Origin: Methanothermobacter marburgensis str. Marburg
Lineage (GTDB): Archaea > Methanobacteriota > Methanobacteria > Methanobacteriales > Methanothermobacteraceae
Length of the DNA stretch: 32,000 nt
NCBI RefSeq assembly: GCF_000145295.1
Contig: NC_014408.1
Span: forward strand, 1,440,001 to 1,472,000
Direction: 5' to 3'
Shown in pieces: positions 9,257 to 29,664 of the stretch. Made by a program: the position numbers and the translations under genes. Numbering within the stretch: position 1 is the first letter of the stretch; each line of letters begins with the position of its first letter. The notes beneath the pieces are model-generated. The model worked only from the letters and a program-made list of their open reading frames with translations. It searched no databases and had not been told where the DNA came from.

Positions 9257-10330
9257 ATGGTTCTTGGAAAGGAAGAAATCCTGGAACTTCTCCTTGTTGA
9301 TGGCCCTGAACTACTGGACCTCATGAAGCGTGTCTGCGAGCCAGGGGAGGTGACCTACTCACGGAATGTCTTTATACCCCTCACAAGGGCCTGCCGCAAC
9401 CGCTGCGGCTACTGCACCTTCAGGTCAGACTCCCCCGACCCACCCATCATTCCCCCAGGGGACGTCCTAAGGGAGGTCAGGAGGGCCAGGGATGTGGGGT
9501 GCACAGAGGCCCTCTTCACCTTCGGTGAGAATGCACATGAGTTCCCCGAGGTGATGGAGAAACTCGAAGAGCTCGGATTCAGTGATATGGTTGATTATGC
9601 CCATCACCTCTGCAGCGCCACACTGGATCATGGTCTTCTGCCACACACAAATATGGGTGTGCTTGGCTACAGGGATCTCAGGAGGCTCAGGGAGGTGAAC
9701 GCCTCCATGGGCCTCATGCTTGAGTCTGCAAGTCCCCGACTGATGGAGGAAGAGGCACACCGTGAAAGCCCTGGTAAGGATCCTGCCTTAAGGATAAAGA
9801 TGATAGAAGACGCTGGGCGGCTCAGAATACCGTTCACCACAGGGATACTCGTGGGTATAGGTGAGACAGTGGAGGAGCGGGCCGAATCACTCCTTGAACT
9901 CAGGCGTATCCAGGACAGGTACGGTCACCTGCAGGAGATAATAATCCAGAACTTCCGGGCAAAGCCAGGGATACCCATGGAGCGCCACCCAGAGCCCTCA
10001 CTACTTGAAATGGTGAGGATGGTTGCTGTGGCCAAGCTCCTCTTTCCCGATGTGAGCATACAGGTGCCCCCAAACCTCAACAGGGAAACAGGTGAGGTCT
10101 TCCTGCTTGCAGGTGCAGATGACTGGGGTGGTGTTTCACCGCTGAGCAGGGACTACGTGAACCCGGAGGCCCCCTGGCCAGAGATAGATGAACTTCGAAG
10201 GCTCACAGAGTCCGCGGGCTTCACGTTAAAGGAGAGGTTACCGGTTTACAGGAAGTTCATCAACCCTGATTTTTTAAGTCCGAAGGTCATCGAGACAATA
10301 GAAAGGCTTTACCCTGAATTCCTTGTATGA
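9257..10330 (+). CDS. cofG: FO (7,8-didemethyl-8-hydroxy-5-deazariboflavin) synthase subunit 1, radical SAM enzyme CofG
   Basis: Radical-SAM cluster 'CRNRCGYCTF' preceded by 'NVFIPLTRA'. The size (357 aa) and the C-terminal 'DDWGGVSP' are typical of CofG/CofH. The choice of CofG over CofH rests on N-terminal context and is from memory. Confidence 0.8.
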   Translation: MVLGKEEILELLLVDGPELLDLMKRVCEPGEVTYSRNVFIPLTRACRNRCGYCTFRSDSPDPPIIPPGDVLREVRRARDVGCTEALFTFGENAHEFPEVMEKLEELGFSDMVDYAHHLCSATLDHGLLPHTNMGVLGYRDLRRLREVNASMGLMLESASPRLMEEEAHRESPGKDPALRIKMIEDAGRLRIPFTTGILVGIGETVEERAESLLELRRIQDRYGHLQEIIIQNFRAKPGIPMERHPEPSLLEMVRMVAVAKLLFPDVSIQVPPNLNRETGEVFLLAGADDWGGVSPLSRDYVNPEAPWPEIDELRRLTESAGFTLKERLPVYRKFINPDFLSPKVIETIERLYPEFLV

Positions 10331-10443
10331 CACCTTCTTTGAGAATTTATGGGTCCCTAAGGGGCTGGTTTATCCAACTGTTTTTAGATTATGATTCTTC
10401 AACCACCGGGGCCTTTCATGTTTAATCTCAAGGTCTGATTTCT

Positions 10444-11010
10444 TCAAATGTTAGATTGTGTTTCTTCAACATCAGGTAGTATTATGGTTCCCTCGGAGGG
10501 ATCCCCTAATTCAATGAAATTTCCCTCTGAATAGAGGAGGGCGACCAGTGCAGCCGTGAGGGCGTCCCTCTGGTGTATGCTCATTGTGGAGGTATCACAG
10601 ATTTCCAGCCGCAGACCCGCATTTTCTAGCATCCCCTCTGCCGTCCTGGGGTGTGTCTCAATAACCTCCACCCCACGGGACTCAAGTGCCTCCCTTATCC
10701 TGATACCCCTCATGGTGAGCTCCCTCATCCCCCTCCAGGTCAATGGTAGAACACTGCCATACCTTCTGATCTCAAGGTCCGCCCTTCTGAAGTGGCCATG
10801 CCTGCTGCAGCTGCAGTCACTCCTGAGGCAGCAGCGCCCTCTGGGAAGTGAGAGTGGCGCGTCAACCGCCACTGTATCTGCGGATTTCACTGAATGGATT
10901 ATCTCATCAAATGAGAAGACACTGAACACCTTCACTCTCCTGCCGTCTATTATGGCCACACCTGTCTCGTTTTCATGAGATGCGGCCAGATCAACGCCTG
11001 CAACAGACAC
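10444..11010 (-). CDS. DUF429-like predicted RNase H-fold protein with a Cys cluster
   Basis: 188 aa. The N-terminal 'GVDLAAS..ETGVAIIDG' beta-strand/Asp pattern is typical of RNase H-like DUF429 proteins, and 'CCLRSDCSCSRHGH' is a metal-binding-like cluster. Confidence 0.55.
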   Translation of the reverse strand: MSVAGVDLAASHENETGVAIIDGRRVKVFSVFSFDEIIHSVKSADTVAVDAPLSLPRGRCCLRSDCSCSRHGHFRRADLEIRRYGSVLPLTWRGMRELTMRGIRIREALESRGVEVIETHPRTAEGMLENAGLRLEICDTSTMSIHQRDALTAALVALLYSEGNFIELGDPSEGTIILPDVEETQSNI

Positions 11011-11019
11011 CGCTACCCC

Positions 11020-11802
11020 TCAGTGGACCCTTACATCCAGGACAACATGCCAGACACCCGGCGAGTACTTCTTTATAATATGCCTGTCAAGAACAGACAC
11101 CCTTCTCGGGTGTGCTGCCCTTTCAATCCTCTTAATGGGTCTTGAGAACATTATATTCTCGGGAACAGTTTCATGGTAGTGTAAAACGCCCCCCTCATTG
11201 ACGCATTCCATCGCAGCTTCAAGGAAGTGGTGGGTGGTTCCAACATAACCCATTATAACCCGGTCAGCGTCCAGTTCAGGGGCGATGGAACGGCAGTCCC
11301 CAAGGTGTGGTTCCACGACCCCCTCAACCCTGTTGAGTTTTATATTGGATTTGAGGAATTCAAATGAGTCAGGGTTTATCTCTATGGAGTGGACCCTCCC
11401 TGGGTTTGAATGGACCGCCACCGGTATCGAAAAGTAGCCTATACCTGCAAACATGTCAACAACGGTTTCGCCGTCCTCAACAACTCCGGGTATTCTGGCC
11501 CTCTCATTTATGTTACCCCTTGACCACATTACCCTGGAGAGGTCTATCCTGAAAAGGCAGCCGTTTTCCCTGTGGATTGTCTCGGTGCATTCACCTGCAA
11601 GGACCCTGACGCGGGGCCTCCTCAGGGGTCCACTTATCCCCTCAACAAGGAGAACACCCCTCACACCCGGCATTTCAAGGAATCTTTCAGGGTCCTCAAC
11701 ATCCCTGTTTAGAACTATAATGTCCCCTATCCTCACCCATTTCATGTTTTCACTGCTATGGAGGGCTTTCTGAAAAATAAATCCATAAATGTTCTTCTTC
11801 AT
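11020..11802 (-). CDS. Trm5/Taw2 (Met-10+) family SAM-dependent tRNA modification enzyme
   Basis: SAM-binding 'VVDMFAGIGYFSIPVA' and 'EINPDSFEFLKSNIKLN' are characteristic of Trm5/Taw2. The short length favours Taw2-like. An internal Met at 11745 ('MKWVRIGDIIVL') is an alternative start. Confidence 0.75.
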   Translation of the reverse strand: MKKNIYGFIFQKALHSSENMKWVRIGDIIVLNRDVEDPERFLEMPGVRGVLLVEGISGPLRRPRVRVLAGECTETIHRENGCLFRIDLSRVMWSRGNINERARIPGVVEDGETVVDMFAGIGYFSIPVAVHSNPGRVHSIEINPDSFEFLKSNIKLNRVEGVVEPHLGDCRSIAPELDADRVIMGYVGTTHHFLEAAMECVNEGGVLHYHETVPENIMFSRPIKRIERAAHPRRVSVLDRHIIKKYSPGVWHVVLDVRVH

Positions 11803-11889
11803 CAAAGTATTTAATGGCTTCTGTTGAAGGCAAAAAAGATAACTAGCATGAAATCCAACTCTTCATATATAAATTTGAGGGGTTTTTTT

Positions 11890-17903: not shown

Positions 17904-18397
17904 AGTTGGATAGCAGCAGGGCTGTTTACGAGGGTATGAAGGAGGCGGGGATAGACTTCGCGGTCAGTGTCCCCTGTGTGAACCTCAGGTTCGTCCTTGA
18001 AATGGTGGACTCTGACCCGGAAATCAGGCACGTGCCTGTTACACGTGAGGAAGAGGGATTCGGTGTTGCAGCCGGCGCCTACATGGCCGGCAAGACCACA
18101 GCCATGCTGATGCAGAACTCAGGTCTCGGTAACTCCGTGAATGTCCTCGCATCACTCTACAGCCTCTACCATATCCCCATAACAATGATTGTAAGCCACA
18201 GGGGGACAAGGGGTGAGTTCATGGAGGCCCAGATCCCCATGGGAAGGGCCACGACCGATATACTTGATATCCTCAAAATACCCTACAGTACCCCTGAAAC
18301 ACCCTCAGAGGCAAGGGAATCCATAATGGAACTCACAGAACTTTCACTTAAAAGGAGGCATCCTGTGGCTGTGCTCCTTGAGGTTGCCTACTGGTGA
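17900..18397 (+). CDS. comD: Sulfopyruvate decarboxylase subunit alpha
   Basis: 165-aa TPP-enzyme N-terminal (pyrimidine-binding) module ('[19 protein letters not shown]', '[11 protein letters not shown]'). Its ATG overlaps the comC stop. Confidence 0.85.
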
Positions 18398-18401
18398 TAA
18401 C

Positions 18402-18944
18402 ATGCTTACACGAATTGAAGCCATAGAAAGAATTGTGGGCGTCCTTGATGATGAAATCGTGGTATGCAACCTGGGTTTCCCATCAAGGGAGCTCTACAGT
18501 ATCAAGGATTCGTCAAGACATTTCTACATGCTTGGATCCATGGGTATGGCCCCCTCCATTGGACTTGGCCTTGCCCTCTCACAGGATAGGAGGGTTGTGG
18601 TACTTGATGGTGATGGATCCATCCTCATGAACCTGGGGGGACTGGTAACAGCCGCTGCCCAGGCACCCAAAAACCTCGTCATAGTCCTCCTGGACAACAG
18701 GTGCTACGGAAGCACTGGTTCCCAGTGCACCTACTCAGATCTCATAGACCTGGGGGATGTTGCCGGGTCAATGGGATTCAATGTTATCAGATTCCACGAG
18801 GAACCTGACTTTAAGCGTGTCCTCCAGGAGGATGGGCCAGTTTTTGCCCATGTGCCTGTAAAACCTGGTAACGCGGATGTCCCTGTCATAGATTTAAGCC
18901 CTGAGGAGATAATTGAGAGGTTCATGGATGAGGTGAGATCCTAG
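18402..18944 (+). CDS. comE: Sulfopyruvate decarboxylase subunit beta
   Basis: TPP-binding motif '[15 protein letters not shown]...[12 protein letters not shown]...LLDN'. ATG 18402 is preferred over TTG 18378. Confidence 0.85.
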
Positions 18945-20710: not shown

Positions 20711-20963
20711 GGAGTTTACTCTGTTGTGTGGGACTAATAAAATGTTCTAGGAATGAAGGGGTTATCCGTTTAACTGGCTTGCCAGACCAGTATGCCATAG
20801 TATCAAAAGATATTAAAAAATGTGAACACAGAGCAGTTGACTTGTAAAAACACCTGCAAAATCTCGACTTGAACAACTTCTAAAACAAAACGGAACAAGA
20901 AAAAAATCAGATAAAAACTATAGATCCCTTTCATGTCAAAATGTAATAAGACACCATTGAGTT

Positions 20964-21284
20964 AGAGTTTCTGTGAACAGACAATACATCCCATTACAAA
21001 TCGATAAAGATGTTAAGCCCGTGAAGAATTACAGTAAAGAACGTGAAAAATTACGTGATGTAAGCATTATCGCTTCCTCCTTTGGCAATAAACCATACGC
21101 TCCTGGTGGAGTGTAAGTACCGCAGATACAGACTCAAACAAAGACGTTATGTGATGAAATGCCAATTTATCACTGGGAAAATCATTCCAATGCCAATTTA
21201 AAGAAACACTCAATGCAATCTCATTTGCATTACAAAGAAAGAGATATTAACACTTCATGCATGCTTTGCATGGATTTTTTGTAA
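20964..21284 (+). pseudogene. Possible decayed ORF: about 107 codons open except for one TAA
   Basis: One frame reads '..VNRQYIPLQIDKDVKPVKNYSKEREKLRDVSIIASSFGNKPYAPGGV*VPQIQTQTKTLCDEMPIYHWENHSNANLKKHSMQSHLHYKERDINTSCMLCMDFL*'. A single stop at 21114 in about 35% GC DNA is fewer than chance would predict. No family recognised. Confidence 0.25.
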
Positions 21285-21430
21285 GTTTTTAATGAAAATC
21301 ATGAACATGGGATGTTAGAGATCTAAGAGAAAATGTAAGTGACGAAGATCTTATCTAATAAATTTTAATATTAAATTTGTGTTATATAATGGGATTTATG
21401 TTTTTCGGTCCTCAATTGGATAATAATATT

Positions 21431-21438
21431 TTTATATG
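21431..21438 (+). promoter_or_regulatory. TATA-box-like element (tttatatg) for the large island gene
   Basis: It sits in an A/T-rich context about 46 nt upstream of ATG 21477. GGAGGTG (21464-21470) is the ribosome binding site. Confidence 0.4.
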
Positions 21439-21476
21439 ATTTTATAATCAACTTTATTTTGCTGGAGGTGTTTTTT

Positions 21477-23996
21477 ATGAGAAAGTTTCTGTTCTTTATG
21501 ATGGCTGTCTTGTGTTTCTATCTTATAGGTAATTCTTTCGCTCTAAGTTTATCATATGATGAGGTTTGTGACGCCTCTAAGATGATAGGAAACTATACAG
21601 CATCACAGAACCGTATACCATCAATGGTTGTGGTTAATGGGAAGAATATAACATCAGACAATTATTTGTATGCGGCGTCCTCCACTGTCCTGAACCTTAA
21701 TCAGGGCAAAAGGACCGGCATATCATTACCTGATTATAATCCTCCTACTAATCCGAGTGGGGCGGCAACAGGAACACTCTACAAGACATACACAACAGGG
21801 ACAGGATACCTCCAAGCAGCCCAGAACATCAAAAACTTCATGGAATCCAATGGCAGGTCGCCGAACTATGCCAACACAGCCATTGGACAAGTGCGCTACG
21901 AAAGCCTGATCTACGCCTATGCAAGGATAATAAACTTCTACAACAGCACAGGCAAACTACCAGACCACATTACAATACAACAAATAACAAAAAAAGAAGG
22001 AACCATCACAAGGCCACGGGCCGACTACACCTACAAAATCGAAGGTTACACCACCTATTTCATGGATAAGAGCACAGGTTCCATCCAATCATGGCAATGG
22101 GACCTTGGAGACAACACAACAAGCACTGAAAGGAACCCAACACACACCTACAAAGCAGGAACATACACCGTAACCTTAACCGTCCGGGGTTATGGTGTCA
22201 CATCCACTAGGACGATGATGTTGGAGGTTATGCTTGCGACAATTCATGTTAATTCAACAGCAGTAACGTTTTTGGGACAAACTTTAAACTTAACCTTTAA
22301 AATGCCTCTTAACAATACAGCCAAATGGATTAGTATAGGGGCTATGGCTACAGGCCCATTCAATGAGACAGTATTCCTTGTGGAGGATGGTGTAGCATAT
22401 AAACTGGCAGAGCTAACCAACCCATTCTATCAGGTGAACAGGCAAAGTCAAAGGGAAATTGTCTGGACCGCCACCGCAGGACTGAACAGACTCATAGAAA
22501 TCTGCACAAAACTCGGACTCGACGAACTCGAAACAATAAATGAATACCTCAACAACTTCAACCTAACAGAACAAGAAAAGAACTTCATCCTAACAAACCA
22601 TGGAAGATGCATAGACATCCTCCAAGTCAGCATAGAATATCCTGGCGAAGAAAGTGTCACAATAGCCAACATAACATTCCCAGGGAACCGATCAACAAGG
22701 ACGCTCCTACTACTCTACACAAACGGCTACTACATACACCCGCCAGGAGAAACCGGGCCCAACATAATAATAAATGACACCCTAACCTGGGAAGCCAGCA
22801 ACTATGACGCCATTATAACCTACACCATAGCCACCAAAAAAATAACAAACCAGACACTACAATACTGGCTAAACAAAGAATACCCTCCAGGACCATTAAA
22901 AGCAGCCTACGGACTATTCCTCGCAGGCCTCGAAACAATATACCTCCACGACACAATCGCAGACCAGGCAGCCGCAAAATACAACATAACATGGACAAGA
23001 ACCAGGCCAGCGATGGTCTCAGCAGGAGACCACAGCCCAGCGACATGGATAAGCCTGGAATGCAACCACAACATGGGAGTGAAAGCCAACGGAACAACAC
23101 AAAACCTGAAAGCATTCAACTACGCAAGGACATCCACCATAAACCCAATAGAATACTATGTTATGGAAGCCTTATTCCCAGGATCAGACCCCACAACCGC
23201 CCCAATAACAGGAATAGGCCAGAAACTACTCAATGGAGAGCCACTAGACATCCTCGAAACCGAAAATTATACGCTAATCACTGACAACCAAGGAAGATAC
23301 ATCATAATAGACCATAAAACAGGAATGGTCAGAGACATAATCTACAATCTTATGGGAGCATACTGCTACTACCACCAACAAACAGAATGGGCCCAAGAAC
23401 TTGGCCGAACCATAATGTCCTCTGAAAGGTTAAAGTCACTCTTGGATGGTAATGGCACAGTAAATCTTGAAGGTTTAAGGGATAGTGTGGGAAAAGCCTT
23501 CATGGGTCTTATAGTTTCAATGCGACTCGCCCTACATAACCCCATGACCTTTGTTGAAATCATCAGTTATGGCTTGGTGGGTCAGGGCCTCATAGGAGTT
23601 AACATAGCAGCATACGCAACAACAATAGCCTACATAAACTCCAAACTCAACAACATTACAGGCAGCATCAAAGAATTTATCGTGGAACATCAAACATACA
23701 TTTCAAATGATTTTGTTGAATATATGCTTCCAGCAGTAATATATGTATTATCGAAATCTGGTGGTGGGGTAATACTTCAGCCAGTTGGTTTGTGTATGGC
23801 TATAGGCAATGGGATACTCGATTTTAGGGATCATTATCTCCCAGAGGAATATTGGAAATATATTGCATATCATCGTACATGGGCTCATGGTTATGAGCTT
23901 AGGGCTTATGTTGGTGAGGATCATTGTATACACTATATTGAAATACCGAAGGACCCTGATGGTACTCTACGGTGGGATGAAGCAGTATATATTTAA
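21477..23996 (+). CDS. Large secreted or cell-wall-associated protein: signal peptide, two pseudomurein-binding-like repeats, a PKD domain, an unknown region of about 400 aa, and a hydrophobic C-terminal region
   Basis: ATG 21477 lies 7 nt after GGAGGTG, and the TTG at 21459 is unlikely. Signal-like 'MRKFLFFMMAVLCFYLIGNSFA'. PMBR-like segments 'YDEVCDASKMIGNYTASQNRIPSMVVVNGKNITSDNYLYAASSTVLNL' and 'YLQAAQNIKNFMESNGRSPNYANTAIGQVRYESLIYAYARIINFY'. PKD signature 'WQWDLGDNTTSTERNPTHTYKAGTYTVTLTV' (about 22020-22235). At least 18 N-x-S/T sequons counted by eye. Hydrophobic segments lie near the C-terminus. Confidence 0.85.
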   Translation: MRKFLFFMMAVLCFYLIGNSFALSLSYDEVCDASKMIGNYTASQNRIPSMVVVNGKNITSDNYLYAASSTVLNLNQGKRTGISLPDYNPPTNPSGAATGTLYKTYTTGTGYLQAAQNIKNFMESNGRSPNYANTAIGQVRYESLIYAYARIINFYNSTGKLPDHITIQQITKKEGTITRPRADYTYKIEGYTTYFMDKSTGSIQSWQWDLGDNTTSTERNPTHTYKAGTYTVTLTVRGYGVTSTRTMMLEVMLATIHVNSTAVTFLGQTLNLTFKMPLNNTAKWISIGAMATGPFNETVFLVEDGVAYKLAELTNPFYQVNRQSQREIVWTATAGLNRLIEICTKLGLDELETINEYLNNFNLTEQEKNFILTNHGRCIDILQVSIEYPGEESVTIANITFPGNRSTRTLLLLYTNGYYIHPPGETGPNIIINDTLTWEASNYDAIITYTIATKKITNQTLQYWLNKEYPPGPLKAAYGLFLAGLETIYLHDTIADQAAAKYNITWTRTRPAMVSAGDHSPATWISLECNHNMGVKANGTTQNLKAFNYARTSTINPIEYYVMEALFPGSDPTTAPITGIGQKLLNGEPLDILETENYTLITDNQGRYIIIDHKTGMVRDIIYNLMGAYCYYHQQTEWAQELGRTIMSSERLKSLLDGNGTVNLEGLRDSVGKAFMGLIVSMRLALHNPMTFVEIISYGLVGQGLIGVNIAAYATTIAYINSKLNNITGSIKEFIVEHQTYISNDFVEYMLPAVIYVLSKSGGGVILQPVGLCMAIGNGILDFRDHYLPEEYWKYIAYHRTWAHGYELRAYVGEDHCIHYIEIPKDPDGTLRWDEAVYI

Positions 23997-24127
23997 GGTG
24001 GTGGTTTGTTTGGATTGATAAGCTTTATGTGCTGATTATCTAGGTGTTGGTTTCAGTGGCAGATCTACTAAGTTGTGTTTGGTTTTGGCTTTGAGGTGAT
24101 TTGTGGTGGGGTGATTGGAGAAAAAGG

Positions 24128-24517
24128 ATGGGTGGTTCTATGTTAGGTTTAAGAATAATCATAGGCTGTATACTTTTTATGTTAGTATTTATAGGTTGTA
24201 TATTACTGATATTAGGAGGTTTAGGAGAACGGGAAAAGAGGTTGGATTTTCTCTTATATGGGGTTATAGGTGGTGTGTTGCTTGCCATTGGATCTTTTTT
24301 CCTTGGGGGGGATGTGGGGGCTTTCACATTCCTCATAATCTCTTTCATCTTCTTAAATAAGATAGGGAAACTTAAGATGGAATGGTTAGCCAAATCCTCC
24401 ATAATACTAGCATACATCTTTGCTTTAACAATGATAATCTTAGACAGAATATTAATAGGTATTTTTGCTCTGATAGTGGCAACCCTTTTAATCAAAGAAT
24501 CCAAGACTTCAGTATGA
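24128..24517 (+). CDS. Small polytopic membrane protein (129 aa, about 4 TM helices)
   Basis: ATG 24128 lies 7 nt after GGAG (24117-24120). Four long hydrophobic stretches, e.g. 'LRIIIGCILFMLVFIGCILLILGG'. The overlapping antisense 163-aa ORF is low-complexity and rejected. Confidence 0.6.
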   Translation: MGGSMLGLRIIIGCILFMLVFIGCILLILGGLGEREKRLDFLLYGVIGGVLLAIGSFFLGGDVGAFTFLIISFIFLNKIGKLKMEWLAKSSIILAYIFALTMIILDRILIGIFALIVATLLIKESKTSV

Positions 24518-24597
24518 GGATCCCATTGCATACAACATGGAATGCCGAAGAACCCTGATGGTACTCTACGGTGGGGATGAAGCAGTATATTGTTAGT
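24512..24597 (+). repeat. Second, degenerate copy of the last ~85 nt of the large gene (tail copy B)
   Basis: gaggatcccattgcatacaac...accctgatggtactctacggtgggGatgaagcagtatat aligns with 23916-23996. Identical runs of 24 and 14 nt are separated by one extra G. Weaker similarity continues about 35 nt past the stop (23997-24035 versus 24598-24635). Confidence 0.8.
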
Positions 24598-24611
24598 GAG
24601 GAGGGTCTTTT

Positions 24612-24848
24612 TTGGATTATGAATCTTTGTTTGGGAAGGTTTATTTTCTTATTTGTGTTGATATTATTTTATATTTTGTTGGGATTAGGCATTTTAATGG
24701 TTTGGTTCCAATAGCGGCCCTTTTAGCCGTGTTTATTTATTTCCTTTTATTCTGGTTGCACTTCTTCGTGGATGAGTTGAAGGGAAAAAAAGAAGAAATA
24801 AGATGGATGATGGCCATAATCCTTGCATTAATTATATTCGGAACATAA
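24612..24848 (+). CDS. Small hydrophobic protein (78 aa, 2-3 TM helices), TTG start
   Basis: TTG 24612 lies 6 nt after GAGGAGGG (24598-24605). The product is hydrophobic ('VPIAALLAVFIYFLLFWLHFF', 'MMAIILALIIFG'). A 32-codon ATG ORF in another frame (24619) is an alternative, so the call is tentative. Confidence 0.4.
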   Translation: MDYESLFGKVYFLICVDIILYFVGIRHFNGLVPIAALLAVFIYFLLFWLHFFVDELKGKKEEIRWMMAIILALIIFGT

Positions 24849-24925
24849 AGAGGAGTTATCATGTTGCCAAGATGAAGGGGGATGTTAAGGTTTTTTCATT
24901 TAATAGACCATAAAACAGGAATATT

Positions 24926-25546
24926 ATGGGAGCATACTACCACCAACAAACAGAACTAGCCAAAAAACTTGGGAATGAAATTTTGAATTGGAGTGGTTGG
25001 TGGAAATTTATTGGTGTTGCTGGTGTTTCAACAGCCGAGGCTGCTGTGCTTGAACTGGGTGTGCTTTCAGCCCCAGAAACCCTTGGTTTGAGTTTGGCTG
25101 TTACCCTGGCCGCATATATTATCATGGAGCATCCTGAATGGCTACCATACATCAAAGACGCCGCAATAATGACACTACTAACACCAGGTGGCATACCTCT
25201 TGCTATGGCGTATGCATGGTTGAGTAAGGATGCTACATACTTTGAATTACTTTTAAAGAAGATAACGGATCCTAATGAAGTCTTGGATAATGTGATAAAA
25301 GAGCTTCAGAATAGTTTAGATCCAAATAGTTTAATAGGACCCGATGGGAAAAGAGGAGATATTCTCGGGTTTTTCCGTGATAGATATGTGAGGTTCTATA
25401 ACTCTCTTAAGAGGGGAGATATTGTGGATGTTGTGAAATATGGTATTGAGCTTATTGCTGGAGGAATAACGGTTGGTTCGTGGGTGGTGAGTGGCTTTAA
25501 GGAATTTGTGAAGGCCGTTCTTGAAAAAGAAACTGGAGGAGATTAA
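24926..25546 (+). CDS. Orphan C-terminal fragment 1: begins with the junction motif of the large gene (MGAYYHQQTELAKKLG) and then diverges; hydrophobic plus helical, 206 aa
   Basis: DNA at 24899-24972 is homologous to 23303-23404 of the large gene (identical runs aatagaccataaaacaggaat, tatgggagcatac, taccaccaacaaacagaa). The ORF starts at the Met conserved in 'NLMGAYCYYHQQTE'. The remainder has no visible similarity to the main C-terminus. Confidence 0.6.
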   Translation: MGAYYHQQTELAKKLGNEILNWSGWWKFIGVAGVSTAEAAVLELGVLSAPETLGLSLAVTLAAYIIMEHPEWLPYIKDAAIMTLLTPGGIPLAMAYAWLSKDATYFELLLKKITDPNEVLDNVIKELQNSLDPNSLIGPDGKRGDILGFFRDRYVRFYNSLKRGDIVDVVKYGIELIAGGITVGSWVVSGFKEFVKAVLEKETGGD

Positions 25547-25547
25547 A

Positions 25548-26171
25548 TTGGATTTAAATGCAGTCATATTATTTATATTTCTATTAAGTGTAGTCTTCAT
25601 TTTCATAGAATATTCTCTAGGAAAAATCGCGTTGGGATTAATTGAAAAAGAAGAGTATGAAAAAGCCATAAATGTCTATAGGCTCCTCATATCAAAAACT
25701 GAGAAAGATTTATTCAACATAGGATTCTGTTTCACCCAAAACAAAGAATACCAAAAAGCTTTAAAATATTATGACAAGGCATTAAAAATAAATCCGGAAT
25801 ATGCAGAAGCATGGAACAACAAAGGAATAATACTAAAAGAACTTAAAAAATACAAAAAAGCCCTAAAATGCTACAACAAAGCCCTAGAAATAAACCCTGA
25901 ACTTATAGAAGCATGGAACAACAAAGGAACAACCCTCCAGGAGCTGGGCAAATATGAAGAAGCACTAGAATGCTACAACAAAGCCCTAGAAATAAACCCA
26001 AAAAGCATTGAAACATTAACTTACAAGGGAATAACATTATCCAAAATCGGCAAATACAAAAAAGCCCTAAAATGCTTCGACAAAGCACTCAAAATAAACC
26101 CAAAAAACAAACTATTACACAAAACCAAAGCAGCACTTCACAAAAAACTTAAAAACCAAGAAAAAGCCTGA
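25548..26171 (+). CDS. TPR-repeat protein with an N-terminal TM anchor (about 207 aa, about 5 TPRs)
   Basis: TTG 25548 lies 7 nt after GGAGGA (25535-25540) and 1 nt after the stop of fragment 1. 'LNAVILFIFLLSVVFIFI' is a TM helix, followed by repeated 34-aa units such as 'AEAWNNKGIILKELKKYKKALKCYNKALEINP'. Confidence 0.85.
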   Translation: MDLNAVILFIFLLSVVFIFIEYSLGKIALGLIEKEEYEKAINVYRLLISKTEKDLFNIGFCFTQNKEYQKALKYYDKALKINPEYAEAWNNKGIILKELKKYKKALKCYNKALEINPELIEAWNNKGTTLQELGKYEEALECYNKALEINPKSIETLTYKGITLSKIGKYKKALKCFDKALKINPKNKLLHKTKAALHKKLKNQEKA

Positions 26172-26195
26172 TGTTACAACCTCGAAAATGTCGCA

Positions 26196-26639
26196 ATGAT
26201 GACCATACTACCAACACCAGGTGGTCTGCCAACATTCATCACCTACACATTACTAACAGGAGACACACAACCAATACAAAACTATCTTGAAATACTATCA
26301 AGACAGTCAGACGGATGGACCCGTAGAATGGTAAATGAGTATAGAGAAGCCGTAGATACTCTAAGGGCGGTTAGCAGTGGTAGTGTTGGTGGCGATCCCG
26401 ACGATATAGAAAGGGCTATAAATAATTTAGGTAAATTCATGAGGGATGAATGGAAGCTGTTCAAGGAGGCTTTAAAGGATGGGGATGTTGTGGAGGCCAT
26501 AAAACATGGAAGCACTATAATAGGCACCGGGATGGGCGTTGCGGCCCTGTTAACATATGAGAATCGCGAGGCGATAGAGGCATGCATACTAGGATTCAAA
26601 AACTACCTAGAAAAGAAGTTGAGAGAGGCTGGAGCATGA
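26196..26639 (+). CDS. Orphan C-terminal fragment 2: divergent paralogue of the C-terminal half of fragment 1 (147 aa)
   Basis: 'MMTILPTPGGLPTFITYTLLTGD' matches 'IMTLLTPGGIPLAMAYAWLSKD', 'FKEALKDGDVVEAIKHGSTIIGTGMGVAALL' matches 'FYNSLKRGDIVDVVKYGIELIAGGITVGSWV', and 'GFKNYLEKKLREAG' matches 'GFKEFVKAVLEKETG'. No obvious ribosome binding site, so expression is uncertain. Confidence 0.5.
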   Translation: MMTILPTPGGLPTFITYTLLTGDTQPIQNYLEILSRQSDGWTRRMVNEYREAVDTLRAVSSGSVGGDPDDIERAINNLGKFMRDEWKLFKEALKDGDVVEAIKHGSTIIGTGMGVAALLTYENREAIEACILGFKNYLEKKLREAGA

Positions 26640-27796
26640 ACCCCCTTAAGAAGATAAAGGATTGGATGGCCAGCGGAAAAGCTGGATGGCACCTCAGCGG
26701 GGGCCGATCAAGCCTAAAACAGGGAAAATACAAAGAAGCTCTTAAAGAATTCAGGAAAGCCCTCAAGGCGAGTCCAAACGACCCGGAAATCTTGCACTAT
26801 AATGCAATGACACTACTAAAACTCAAAAGACCAGAGAAAGCCTTAGAATGTTATGAAAAAATCCTCAAAAACAATCCAAAACTAGCAGAAGCATGGAACA
26901 ACAAAGGAGTAGTCCTTAAAGAACTTAAGAGATATGATGAGGCATTGGAATGCTATGAAAGGGCACTACAAATAGATCCAGAAGACGATGGAACATGGAA
27001 CAACAAAGGAGCGCTCCTTGACACAATCGGTAAACCTGAAAAAGCAATAGAATGTTATGAAAAAGCCTTAGAAATAAACCAAAAAAATGCAAAAGCATGG
27101 TATAATAAAGGTAACGGATTACGTAGTCTTGGAAAATATGAGGAGGCATTGGAATGCTATGAAAAAGCATTACAGATAAACGCAGAATTCGTAGAGGCAT
27201 GGTACAACAAAGCACTAATTCTTGAAGAACTTAAGAGATATGATGAGGCATTGGAATGCTATGAAAGGGCACTACAAATAGATCCAGAAGACGATGGAAC
27301 ATGGAACAACAAAGGAGCGCTCCTTGACACAATCGGTAAACCTGAAAAAGCAATAGAATGTTATGAAAAAGCCTTAGAAATAAACCAAAAAAATGCAAAA
27401 GCATGGAACAACAAAGGAGTAGTCCTTGAAGAACTTAAGAGATATGATGAGGCATTGGAATGCTATGAAAAAGCCTTAGAAATAAACCTAGAAAACGACG
27501 AAACATGGGCTAACAAGGGAGTACTCCTCAGGAAACTTGGAAAATATGAGGAGGCACTGGAATGTTTTGAAAAAGCCCTTGAAATAAACCCAGAATTCGC
27601 AGATGCATGGAAATGGAAAGGAATAATCCTGGAAGACCTCAAAAAACCAGAGGAAGCCCTGAAATGCCACAAGCAAGCCCTCAAACTAAACCCCCCAAAA
27701 CAAAACACTACAAAAACTTGGAAAACACCAAAAAAGTCCTACAAAAAAAGCCCTGAAAGAACTCCAAATGAAAGGCCAAAGTCACCCTTAGGGTAA
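26636..27796 (+). CDS. TPR-repeat protein (about 386 aa, about 10 TPRs) with a Lys/Pro-rich tail
   Basis: ATG 26636 overlaps the stop of fragment 2 (gcATGA) and follows GGCTGGAG. It contains repeated 'AWNNKG..L..L.RY.EALECYEKALEINP' units. The tail is 'NPPKQNTTKTWKTPKKSYKKSPERTPNERPKSPLG'. Confidence 0.9.
   Translation: MNPLKKIKDWMASGKAGWHLSGGRSSLKQGKYKEALKEFRKALKASPNDPEILHYNAMTLLKLKRPEKALECYEKILKNNPKLAEAWNNKGVVLKELKRYDEALECYERALQIDPEDDGTWNNKGALLDTIGKPEKAIECYEKALEINQKNAKAWYNKGNGLRSLGKYEEALECYEKALQINAEFVEAWYNKALILEELKRYDEALECYERALQIDPEDDGTWNNKGALLDTIGKPEKAIECYEKALEINQKNAKAWNNKGVVLEELKRYDEALECYEKALEINLENDETWANKGVLLRKLGKYEEALECFEKALEINPEFADAWKWKGIILEDLKKPEEALKCHKQALKLNPPKQNTTKTWKTPKKSYKKSPERTPNERPKSPLG
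26921..27406 (+). repeat. Perfect 180-bp direct duplication inside the TPR gene (26921-27100 = 27227-27406, offset 306 bp = 3 TPR units)
   Basis: The two 180-nt strings (gaacttaagagatatgatgaggc...aaaaatgcaaaagcatgg) are identical on base-by-base reading. In addition, 26891-26960 recurs at 27401-27470 with one mismatch. Confidence 0.95.
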
Positions 27797-28299
27797 CAGC
27801 ACCTTTGAAGGCTTAAAGAACAGCGCGAAAAAAGCTTTTATGAGTCTTATAGCTTCAATGCAACTCCCCCCACACAACCCCATAACCTTTATACTCGGTT
27901 ATGGCTTGGTAGGCCACCAAGTTAAAATGGCAGCATATGCAACAACAATAGCCTACATAAACTCCAAACAGGCAGCATCAAAGAATTTATCGTGGAACAT
28001 CAAACATACATTCCATGGGATGTTGTAGAAGGTATAATAACTATTGGTGGTGTTAAAGCTCTTGCTACTAGTGTGGAACTCAATCTAGGTTTTATAGGTG
28101 TAATTATAGGTGAAGGTGATTTGATTCTTAGGATAAGGGACCATTACCTACCTAGGGAATACTGGAAGTATCGTATCATCCAGGGTCATTCTATGGTTAT
28201 GAGGTTAGGGCTTATGTTGGTGAGGATCATTGTATACACTATATTGAAATACCGAAGAACCCTGATGTAGTTTGAGGTGGGATGATGCTCGATACATAG
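27792..28299 (+). pseudogene. Decayed third copy of the C-terminal ~530 nt of the large gene (tail copy C), broken by frameshifting indels
   Basis: It aligns with 23465-23996 and includes identical runs of 31 nt (gcaacaacaatagcctacataaactccaaac), 44 nt (caggcagcatcaaag...catacatt) and 53 nt (23899-23951 = 28205-28257). A 13-nt deletion after 'aactccaaa' and a net 4-nt deletion after the 'EYWKY' codons split it over three frames (ORFs 27840..28028 and 27992..28270). Confidence 0.8.
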
Positions 28300-28656
28300 G
28301 CTTCTTTATTATATTGCGGTTATTTTGTCATCTTTCACGGTTCCAGTAACTTTGCTGGCCATTAGATCATATGCAGTGATGCAGGCACAGGTCAGATTAT
28401 TGTTAGTGTTTCTTTTAATGATAAATTTTGTACTCCTATTATCTTAGGTCTAAGAGAGCGTTTAAATGAGAAGAAAAAGGGGCAATTGAAACCCTCACGT
28501 TTATAATATTTTTACTACTTATAATTGTTCTTCCAGGTGCTCCTGCTTAACAAAACACGGGAGACATGTAAATGAATTATCATAACTAACATGATGTGCA
28601 ATTATCATGATGCTGTAATATTACGAAATAACCGGAATAAGCATGACACTTTATGT

Positions 28657-29664
28657 TCACTGGTTCTCCTCAGCAGCTGATTCTCCAAGCCGGTAGGCCT
28701 CAAGGGCCGCGTAGGCAAGCCCCAGGACCAGTGGCCCCACTATGAACCCGGCAACACCCCATACGACCGGGCCCCCAAGGAAACCCACAAGGAATATCAT
28801 GGGGTGTATATCAGCATACTTACCTGAAAGCTTTGGCCGGAGGTATATGTCGATTGTGCTGAGGAATATCCCGAATATGAGGACCAGAACCCCCCTGAGG
28901 ATATTCCCGGTCACCAAGTCATAGATGGCAAGGGGGGTGTAGGCAGCCCATGGACCTATAACCGGTATGAGCTGAAATATCCCGGTTATTATACCGAGGA
29001 CTATGGCGTAGGGGTAGCCCAGGAGGTGAAAGCCGAGCCCCGCCATGATGCCTATGAGGAGCGCTGTGAGGAAGTGGCCATAGAATATGCTCATGAGCAC
29101 ACGTTCTGTCTCAGAGGCCATCCTCCTCATGAAGGGCTTGGCTTCAGTGGGTATGATGCCCCTTATATATGAAAGGAGCCTTTCACCATCCCTTGCAAAG
29201 TAGAATGTTGATGAGAGGAATATGAAGAGCTGCAGGGCTATCATGGGGACTGACTGTATCACATCAATCACATAGTTGATGGATCCTCTCAGTATGTCGG
29301 TTAAAATACCCCTCAAAGCCCCCAGGGTGCCCCCGGAACTCTGGAGCTGTCCCGGAAGGTAGGGGATATCAAAGCCCCTTGCAAGGGTTATGAGTGAGGG
29401 GGTGGAGTTTATGAGGGAATCCACGGTAAAAACCACTATACCAATAAGGGGCATTATAACAACGATCATGGCGATGATTATTGAGACCGAGAGGTAGGGT
29501 ATCCTCTCATTTATCCTTAAAGCCACCGGCCTTACAATGTAGGCGAACACAGCCCCCAGGAAGAGCATGGTCCAGATGGGATAGATTACAATGGCCGATA
29601 GAAGTATCAGTGCAAGTACAAGGAATGAAGCAGATGTGATGGTGCCCCTGAGCCTCTCAATCAT
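28657..29664 (-). CDS. AI-2E family transporter (PerM/UPF0118-type permease)
   Basis: 335-aa polytopic membrane protein with the family's typical layout and the C-terminal 'RPKL.G....HP....L..LGG....G..G...GP' region. Confidence 0.8.
   Translation of the reverse strand: MIERLRGTITSASFLVLALILLSAIVIYPIWTMLFLGAVFAYIVRPVALRINERIPYLSVSIIIAMIVVIMPLIGIVVFTVDSLINSTPSLITLARGFDIPYLPGQLQSSGGTLGALRGILTDILRGSINYVIDVIQSVPMIALQLFIFLSSTFYFARDGERLLSYIRGIIPTEAKPFMRRMASETERVLMSIFYGHFLTALLIGIMAGLGFHLLGYPYAIVLGIITGIFQLIPVIGPWAAYTPLAIYDLVTGNILRGVLVLIFGIFLSTIDIYLRPKLSGKYADIHPMIFLVGFLGGPVVWGVAGFIVGPLVLGLAYAALEAYRLGESAAEENQ

Follow-up and report, generated by a model that had tools for sequence, protein, structure and literature searches.

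Here, we identify a locus in Methanothermobacter marburgensis str. Marburg at which the C-terminal module (CT) of a pseudomurein-binding protein is almost certainly exchanged by recombination, as part of a cassette that also carries a partner gene. The locus lies in the stretch of DNA that we analysed, referred to as the window (32,000 nt; positions 1,440,001 to 1,472,000 of contig NC_014408.1), and consists of a main, or expression-locus, gene and an array of further cassettes downstream of it. Hardly any experimental studies have addressed interference competition among archaea, and this locus shows every genetic hallmark of a polymorphic toxin system, made up of parts specific to archaea and linked to the pseudomurein wall. 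By analogy with such systems, the CT would probably act as an antagonistic effector and its partner as an immunity protein.

Exchange of C-terminal modules between natural alleles

Three sets of observations support the idea that the locus is a recombining cassette system. First, the main protein and its close orthologues, which are limited to Methanothermobacter, are mosaics. When their alignments are split at E643 into body and CT, the window protein and P0002 (EMTCatA1) are 72.5% identical over the body and 100% (202/202) over the CT, while the window protein and P0005 are 96% identical over the body and 21% over the CT. Likewise, P0002 and P0006 share 99.6% of the body and 21% of the CT, and P0005 and P0006 share 77% and 96%, respectively. 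In P0005 and P0006, the conserved body is fused in frame at HQQTE to a C-terminus of the type encoded downstream in the window by o206 (95–97%), and P0007 combines the conserved body with a C-terminus of the o147 type (85%). An earlier note on this DNA had proposed a search for natural alleles with swapped C-termini as the test of its own idea; these three proteins are such alleles. Recombinant alleles are seen between near-identical strains from thermophilic digesters. The elements of the locus are listed below; TM stands for transmembrane and RBS for ribosome-binding site.

21477–23996, + strand: main gene, 839 amino acids (aa), with a signal-like N-terminus, two PMBR domains, a PKD domain, the pre-CT domain, the junction motif and CT_A
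21882–22220, + strand: best-scoring PMBR (aa 142–173) and PKD (aa 201–254), from Pfam; PKD also from a PDB profile search
22221–23387, + strand: "pre-CT" domain (aa 255–643, ~390 aa), conserved and common to giant Methanobacteriales surface proteins
23355–23387, + strand: junction motif GAYCYYHQQTE, the recombination breakpoint, at which identity switches at the protein and DNA level
23388–23996, + strand: CT_A module (aa 644–845, 202 aa), with amphipathic Gly/Ala-rich helices and a C-terminal beta-rich sub-domain of ~50 aa, as judged from hydropathy and prediction
24101–24517, + strand: o138, predicted 4-TM protein with probable start ATG 24140, candidate immunity partner of CT_A
24515–24618, + strand: remnant of a CT_A-type cassette (last ~85–100 nt), 79–85% identical to 23915–24016 by blastn
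24612–24848, + strand: o78, 2-TM protein with RBS GAGGAGG, partner of a lost CT_A' cassette and candidate orphan immunity gene
24901–24972, + strand: eroded pre-junction homology and junction of orphan cassette B, lacking 22 nt and 6 nt that the main gene has
24926–25546, + strand: o206, orphan CT_B, starting MGAYYHQQTE; the C-termini of P0006 and P0005 are 97% and 95% identical to it
25521–26171, + strand: TPR216, with a predicted N-terminal TM anchor and 4–5 TPR repeats (Pfam TPR_1, 1e-49), partner of CT_B
26196–26639, + strand: o147, truncated orphan CT_C beginning at a nested breakpoint, "LLTPGG"; 85% identical to the C-terminus of P0007
26582–27796, + strand: TPR404, probable start ATG 26636, with ~10 TPR repeats (Pfam TPR_1, 2e-111) and no TM segment, partner of CT_C
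27769–28288, + strand: CT_A pseudo-cassette, frameshifted (tblastn frames 3, 2 and 1) and chimeric, with a deletion scar at 28168

Second, the DNA breakpoints are sharp. The window is 72–87% identical to locus L004 up to ~23340 and then 100% identical from 23400 across CT_A, o138 and o78, while L004 and L002 are 100% identical up to the junction and unrelated beyond it. Because these breakpoints fall at the junction and the partner genes are included, the modules move as units of CT and partner.

Third, the direct repeats in the window can generate an allele that exists in nature. The earlier note had predicted that a crossover would fuse the body in frame to the first downstream fragment and remove the present C-terminus with two small membrane genes. 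We simulated this crossover in the 21-nt run shared by 23367–23387 and 24935–24955 (...CACCAACAAACAGAA), in which the reading frame is kept. It deletes 1568 nt, which contain CT_A, o138 and o78, and leaves an uninterrupted open reading frame (ORF) of 833 aa that is 96.6% identical over 616 aa to the natural P0005, in line with the prediction. The gene for P0005 lies in locus L001, where the array has exactly the order that such a deletion would leave, i.e., body, CT_B, TPR216, an o147-type cassette, a TPR404-type gene and a CT_A-like remnant. In L001, a metagenome-assembled genome, a change of frame close to residue 225 splits the main gene (9388–11878) into a 239-aa PMBR ORF and the 625-aa P0005, so that it is either a pseudogene or wrongly assembled.

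The repeats themselves lie at, or very near, the positions at which the earlier note had placed them. In a gapped self-comparison, the large block (23423–23983 and 27769–28288; 23465–23996 and 27803–28299 in the note) is 71% identical over 575 columns with 18 gaps (E 1e-75) and contains exact runs of 53, 45 and 31 nt, the 45-nt run having been counted as 44 nt. In the same self-comparison, the junction block (23346–23404 and 24920–24972; 23303–23404 and 24899–24972 in the note) is 80% identical (E 6e-9), with exact runs of 22 nt (23305 = 24901), 15 nt (23350 = 24924) and 21 nt (23367 = 24935, "TACTACCACCAACAAACAGAA"). The third copy, described as ~85 nt at 24512–24597, is found as 23915–24016 matching 24515–24618 at 79% (E 4e-18) and includes perfectly matching stretches of 24 and 17 nt. 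Exact direct repeats in 50 shuffled versions of the 8-kb island did not exceed 18 nt, the longest per shuffle averaging 12.6 nt. The junction block and the large block are ~20–60 nt apart inside the main gene (60 nt in the note) and, as claimed, ~2.8 kb apart downstream with four ORFs between them; these ORFs are two further modules of cassette and partner. The downstream copy of the large block had been taken for a fragment; it is a genuine repeat, but is spread over three reading frames and is a chimera made by deletion rather than an intact fragment.

We considered whether these copies are duplication or decay scars without present function, i.e., pseudogenes left by a past tandem duplication of the 3' end of the gene. 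Such an origin would account for the frameshifted, chimeric distal copy and the ~85-nt remnant, for the non-conserved start codon of o206 and for the somewhat raised dN/dS of the orphans (0.47–0.59). However, it is contradicted by the mosaic identities, the DNA breakpoints and the simulated crossover. In addition, the orphan o206 and TPR216 are 98–100% identical at the DNA level to the CT_B and TPR gene expressed in another lineage (L002), modules occur in every combination with bodies, a second genus has the same layout, and over half of the 196 family members are of the orphan type. We consider scars without function a very improbable explanation.

Cassettes, cognate partners and deletion scars

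The rule that each CT type is followed by its own partner type holds in seven Methanothermobacter loci at at least four chromosomal sites, and in one Methanobacterium locus. CT_A (the window allele) is linked to o138, CT_A' to the o78 family, CT_B to TPR216, CT_C to the TPR404 type, CT_A'' to an 85/92-aa TM protein and CT_A''' to a 79/80-aa TM protein. Accordingly, o138 accompanies CT_A at 99–100% DNA identity in L004 and L006, TPR216 lies 3' of CT_B in the window, L001, L002 and L006 at 96–99%, and a TPR404-type gene lies 3' of CT_C in all Methanothermobacter loci. Homologues of o78 stand directly 3' of CT_A' modules in L004 (16231) and L005 (12516 and 15754), and from this linkage, the third copy is what is left of a CT_A' cassette, the partner of which, o78, is still intact. 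The stump holds a stop codon and has also been kept in L004 and L006. The two small membrane genes, which the earlier note had assigned to the present C-terminus, belong to different cassettes.

The orphan cassettes appear, from their sequence, to be promoter-less or eroded while retaining pre-junction homology. Several keep ~70 aa of the body ahead of the junction, and in L002, the orphan carries 184 nt of pre-junction sequence that is 99.5% identical to its own main gene and ends exactly at the junction. In the window, o206 has no RBS, and L004 and L006 do not share its start codon. L003 contains an additional orphan type (type D) that has the junction motif and precedes two paralogous 4-TM proteins. 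The array of Methanobacterium petrolearium starts with a main gene of 1602 aa and a gene for a 95-aa 3-TM protein; an orphan comes next, in which 146 aa of pre-junction sequence and the junction are joined to another type of tail, and small TM ORFs lie beyond it. A scan of species-representative genomes with very strict back-translated patterns yielded one extra locus only. Partners can be intact beside decayed CTs, as is the case for o78 beside the remnant in the window and for the TPR gene beside a frameshifted CT_C in L006, the locus of Methanothermobacter sp. THM-2. The frameshifted orphan in L006 (14707–15169) contains a 21-nt duplication (GDTEPIQGDTEPIQ), and its TPR partner is intact.

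Recombination is not confined to the junction. The first ~80 aa of CT_B and CT_C form a hydrophobic sub-domain that is almost the same in both, and the two types diverge after "LLTPGG". Because o147, which is 30% identical to aa 81–199 of o206 (the C-terminal two-thirds), starts exactly there, this site is a second, nested breakpoint. TPR404 is composed of 102-nt units and contains a duplication of 306 nt, or three units (26834–27111 versus 27140–27417, 89%); the duplication seems to be recent, and the TPR partner apparently evolves by repeat shuffling. The last codons of TPR404 (27769–27796, ...NERPKSPLG-stop) are CT_A-derived (compare SERLKSLLDGNG in the main gene), so that the reading frame of TPR404 continues into the pseudo-cassette at its truncated 5' end; to judge from the sequence, this is a further deletion scar.

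A comparison with THM-2 captures such a deletion directly. The window is collinear with THM-2 at 93% identity overall and 99–100% over the main gene and first modules, and it lacks 865 nt at 28168 in a gap that falls between two CT_A repeats. The distal copy in the window matches "copy 1" of THM-2 as far as CCTAGGGAATACTGGAAG (the DHYLPxEYWKY motif) and "copy 2" thereafter, and it is this chimera that causes the frame change seen by tblastn. The deletion took out a 92-aa TM ORF that stands 3' of the intact copy 1 in THM-2. The remaining differences are concentrated in TPR404, which is 67–72% identical with a one-unit 102-nt indel, in the midst of neighbouring DNA that is 98–100% identical.

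Likeness to known systems and possible function

The locus shares its layout with bacterial polymorphic toxin systems such as CdiA-CT/CdiI and Rhs-CT/RhsI (Zhang et al. 2012, PMC3482391). Both have a large secreted presentation protein, which here carries a predicted N-terminal export signal and presentation/adhesion domains. In both, a conserved motif marks a sharp boundary between a conserved part, here that of orthologues, and a hypervariable C-terminus of ~200 aa, and an immediately downstream partner co-varies with the CT type, here across 7–8 loci. Both have downstream orphan modules of CT and partner with pre-junction homology, modules displaced or deleted by homologous recombination, as in the natural recombinants described above, and decayed toxin pieces beside intact partners. 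There are also clear differences. Pfam and motif searches detected no TPS, FHA or VENN, and Pfam gave no RHS/YD match for the window protein or for the 8 distant members searched; equally, the locus is without PAAR, LXG, HINT or a dedicated secretion partner, including any transporter gene. The body is instead made of PMBR/PKD (or beta-helix) domains and a novel pre-CT domain, with the pseudomurein envelope as the presumed target, and the junction reads GAYC[YF]xxQQTE in place of VENN or PxxxxDPxGL. The CTs and partners fall outside the known Tox/Imm families, and the CTs have no recognisable toxin domain.

The earlier note had likened the locus both to CDI/Rhs orphan modules and to the pilE/pilS cassettes of Neisseria. 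The first analogy fits better, because every cassette has a co-varying partner gene. The second analogy would imply antigenic or phase variation that evades viruses or external recognition, with silent cassettes serving only to alter the expressed sequence. As in pilE/pilS, one expressed gene is accompanied by promoter-less, partial 3' copies in direct orientation, and recombination in the conserved flanking sequence is documented. Nevertheless, we regard such variation as improbable. Cassettes of the pilS type are partnerless and act by non-reciprocal gene conversion to give mosaics, whereas here modules move with their partners in deletions and whole-module replacements; moreover, the variable part is the membrane-proximal hydrophobic C-terminus and not the exposed PMBR/PKD region.

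The nearest archaeal analogue is VARTIG of Thermococcales (Makarova et al. 2021, PMC8416519), likewise a large archaeal surface protein with a C-terminus that is hypervariable by recombination and with variable downstream genes, including genes for membrane proteins, that track the variant. However, the variable part of VARTIG is an Ig domain (arCOG07710), whereas the CTs here are predicted, from low-confidence models, to be helical and hydrophobic modules, and lineage and domains differ. The VARTIG authors proposed polymorphic-toxin-like, immune, and self/non-self functions and reported that they did not find a comparable module outside Thermococcales (PMC8416519). In archaea, polymorphic toxin systems have been deemed rare and largely borrowed from bacteria, with only Methanosarcina RHS, barnase-like systems and haloarchaeal PVC toxins listed (Zhang et al. 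2012, PMC3482391). A description of the present family was not found in a search of the full-text literature, a search that did not extend to the archaeal toxin survey of Makarova et al. 2019.

We suggest that the secreted, pseudomurein-binding body would present the CT at the pseudomurein wall, or deliver it through the wall, to neighbouring Methanobacteriales, where the CT would act as a membrane-active antagonistic effector. The partner genes would encode cognate immunity proteins, and the stored cassettes would diversify the weapon and maintain immunity to other alleles. The swapping or deletion of modules by homologous recombination at the junction, at LLTPGG or between CT repeats is, by contrast, seen in its natural products in related genomes.

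Membrane-depolarising effectors with small membrane immunity proteins include CdiA-CT of E. coli EC93, Tse5-CT and pore-forming colicins. The CTs here resemble these in their Gly/Ala-rich amphipathic or hydrophobic helices and in the small multi-TM partner immediately downstream; in contrast to that likeness, no sequence similarity was detected, and for two of the window's three CT types the partner is a TPR protein instead. Bacterial polymorphic toxin systems do include CTs that form pores and immunity proteins that contain TPRs (PMC3482391). Indirect support for effector and immunity functions comes from the hydrophobic segment that 56 of 58 family tails have and from the partners, which are by TM prediction multi-TM proteins or a TM-anchored TPR protein. 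The persistence of intact partners beside decayed CTs is as expected of immunity genes and not of a partner that would be useless without its CT. In addition, the last ~50 aa of CT_A, which form the beta-rich sub-domain with the motif RDHYLPxEYWKY...DHCIHYIE, recur (50% identical) in a bacteriocin-like cluster, where they follow a double-glycine-like leader (LSTEEMQNIRGK) in the C-terminal part of a secreted C39 peptidase.

Several findings weigh against an effector/immunity function. The CTs and partners in the window have no toxin or immunity family match in Pfam or NCBIfam and no meaningful one in PDB, and among 35 family tails there is one marginal match, to Transglut_core (E 0.003). AF2 models of the full protein (17-sequence alignment; mean pLDDT, 40.0) and of o206 (9 sequences; mean pLDDT, 41.5) are too poor to use. 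Because the CTs match no known toxin and the structure models are unusable, the functional assignment is drawn from the architecture. TPR404 has neither a TM segment nor a signal, which is awkward for immunity to an externally delivered membrane toxin. Values of dN/dS for CTs, orphans and partners range from 0.19 to 0.93, those for CTs and partners from 0.25 to 0.93, and, with small counts and likely saturation, do not discriminate between the readings. The hydrophobic C-termini could be plain membrane anchors. Finally, the orphan junction in the window is eroded to exact runs of 15–22 nt, for which reason switching in this strain may be rare.

Some of these findings would be accommodated if the locus were a non-toxic polymorphic identity or anchoring system, in which the CT is the membrane anchor or identity determinant of the producer and the partner is a cognate binding protein of the membrane or cytoplasm, and in which exchange diversifies identity, as in kin recognition by Proteus IdsD/IdsE or in the proposed self/non-self role of VARTIG. 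A TPR404 that looks cytoplasmic would suit an intracellular binding partner, nearly all tails start with hydrophobic, uncharged segments, toxin homology was not found, and the PMBR body binds the wall of the producer itself. The evidence for cassettes and recombination fits this explanation equally well, and self/non-self recognition is among the three readings given for the analogous archaeal module (Makarova et al. 2021, PMC8416519). On the other hand, the persistence of partners beside decayed CTs speaks against an identity system, as does the reuse of the CT_A sub-domain in the bacteriocin-like C39 cluster, and some orphan tails are not hydrophobic (L003 type D, P0145 and P0165). Hence, we regard an identity or anchoring system as a serious rival, albeit an unlikely one, and on balance favour a polymorphic-toxin-type locus as the probable explanation.

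The pre-CT domain extends these considerations to a much larger set of proteins, since it ties the locus to giant surface proteins of Methanobacteriales, in ~200 families, that currently go under the names "adhesin-like" or "beta-helix repeat". The body region aa 255–664 retrieved 196 cluster representatives by phmmer, 134 of them at E ≤ 1e-10. The named relatives are "parallel beta-helix repeat" proteins of Methanobacterium and Methanothermobacter of up to 2414 aa, in which the pre-CT domain lies 100–280 aa from the C-terminus; distant members carry NosD/beta-helix, Fn3-associated and PMBR domains. The family-wide junction motif is G[AS]YC[YF]x[DN]QQT[ED]|WAxDLGExLLN. In 58 proteins, the 100 aa ahead of the junction all group together in a single cluster, whereas the tails fall into 24, and 56 of the 58 tails have a hydrophobic, largely uncharged segment. 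Of 148 representatives, 84 begin inside the domain, 79 of them with Met and mostly at GP[ML][KR]AAYG, and these look like orphan cassettes. No match to the pre-CT domain was found in Pfam, NCBIfam or PDB (best PDB profile, E 0.17).

Based on these sequence patterns, we tentatively put forward, at somewhat less than even chances, that Methanobacteriales possess a native polymorphic toxin/immunity family that is not bacteria-derived. Giant, pseudomurein-associated "adhesin-like" proteins with a novel pre-toxin domain and the GAYCYxxQQTE motif would deliver dozens of novel membrane-active effectors to neighbours with pseudomurein walls, small TM or TPR proteins would confer immunity, and the orphan arrays would be a reservoir for switching. 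If so, a large part of the methanogen adhesin-like proteins that lack an explanation could be given a function, and the proposal could be tested in Methanothermobacter thermautotrophicus, which is genetically tractable. Should the CTs be effectors, they would represent new membrane-active protein families with antidotes, would explain strain replacement in methanogenic reactors and in gut and rumen communities, and would provide a tractable model for kin discrimination in archaea. If the CTs are not toxins, the locus is still a clear and well-documented case of programmed-looking exchange of C-terminal modules in an archaeon.

Gene details and genomic setting

The most likely start of the main gene is ATG 21477, which has a GGAGGTG RBS 7 nt upstream and agrees with the start of P0001 of THM-2; the alternative TTG at 21459 is the mechanical ORF start and is disfavoured. 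The protein has a predicted N-terminal hydrophobic segment and Pfam matches to PMBR (1e-21) and PKD_4 (1e-12). It is 99% identical to P0001, and an identical protein is encoded on a contig from a biogas fermenter. A simple search for TATA and T-tract elements, which is suggestive only, gave a TATA-like TTATATA at 21382 and T6 tracts between modules at 24608 and 24891, which could be archaeal terminators before o78 and the orphan CT_B. A search of the window for RNA elements gave no Rfam match.

The locus forms a low-GC island at ~21000–29000, with 37–44% GC compared to ~51% in the flanking housekeeping genes and a strongly positive GC skew at 24–26 kb. A family-B DNA polymerase gene (PolB) lies on one side and AI-2E transporter, pyrK and pyrD genes on the other. 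The window is 99.5% identical to a Methanothermobacter contig from a biogas fermenter. The site between PolB and AI-2E-pyrK-pyrD is common to the window (20711–28656), THM-2 and the JGI contig L003 (9514–15906), and in L003 the island is inverted relative to its flanks. In other genomes, the island occupies unrelated sites, beside MIP/DUF2193, Nre or glycosyltransferase genes. We rejected a phage or mobile-element origin of the repeats: they have no match in a phage collection or among viral contigs, a tRNA was not found, and the island contains no integrase or transposase ORF.

L004 (6135–9078) and L002 (5126–8069) have a bacteriocin-like cluster immediately upstream of the locus. Its C39 peptidase is apparently split or frameshifted into ORFs of 92 and 223 aa, and it also encodes two cationic Trp/Gly-rich peptides (75 and 90 aa) with a leader motif of the LSTEEMQNIRGK type and several small TM proteins. 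An MNT/HepT pair (NTP_transf_2 and HepT-like) lies immediately upstream of the main gene of Methanobacterium petrolearium (L008, 9083–9695; L009, 8641–9253), and an MNT/HepT toxin-antitoxin pair also lies a few kb downstream of the L001 array (18368–18836). The proximity of these pairs hints that the loci sit in conflict or defence islands.

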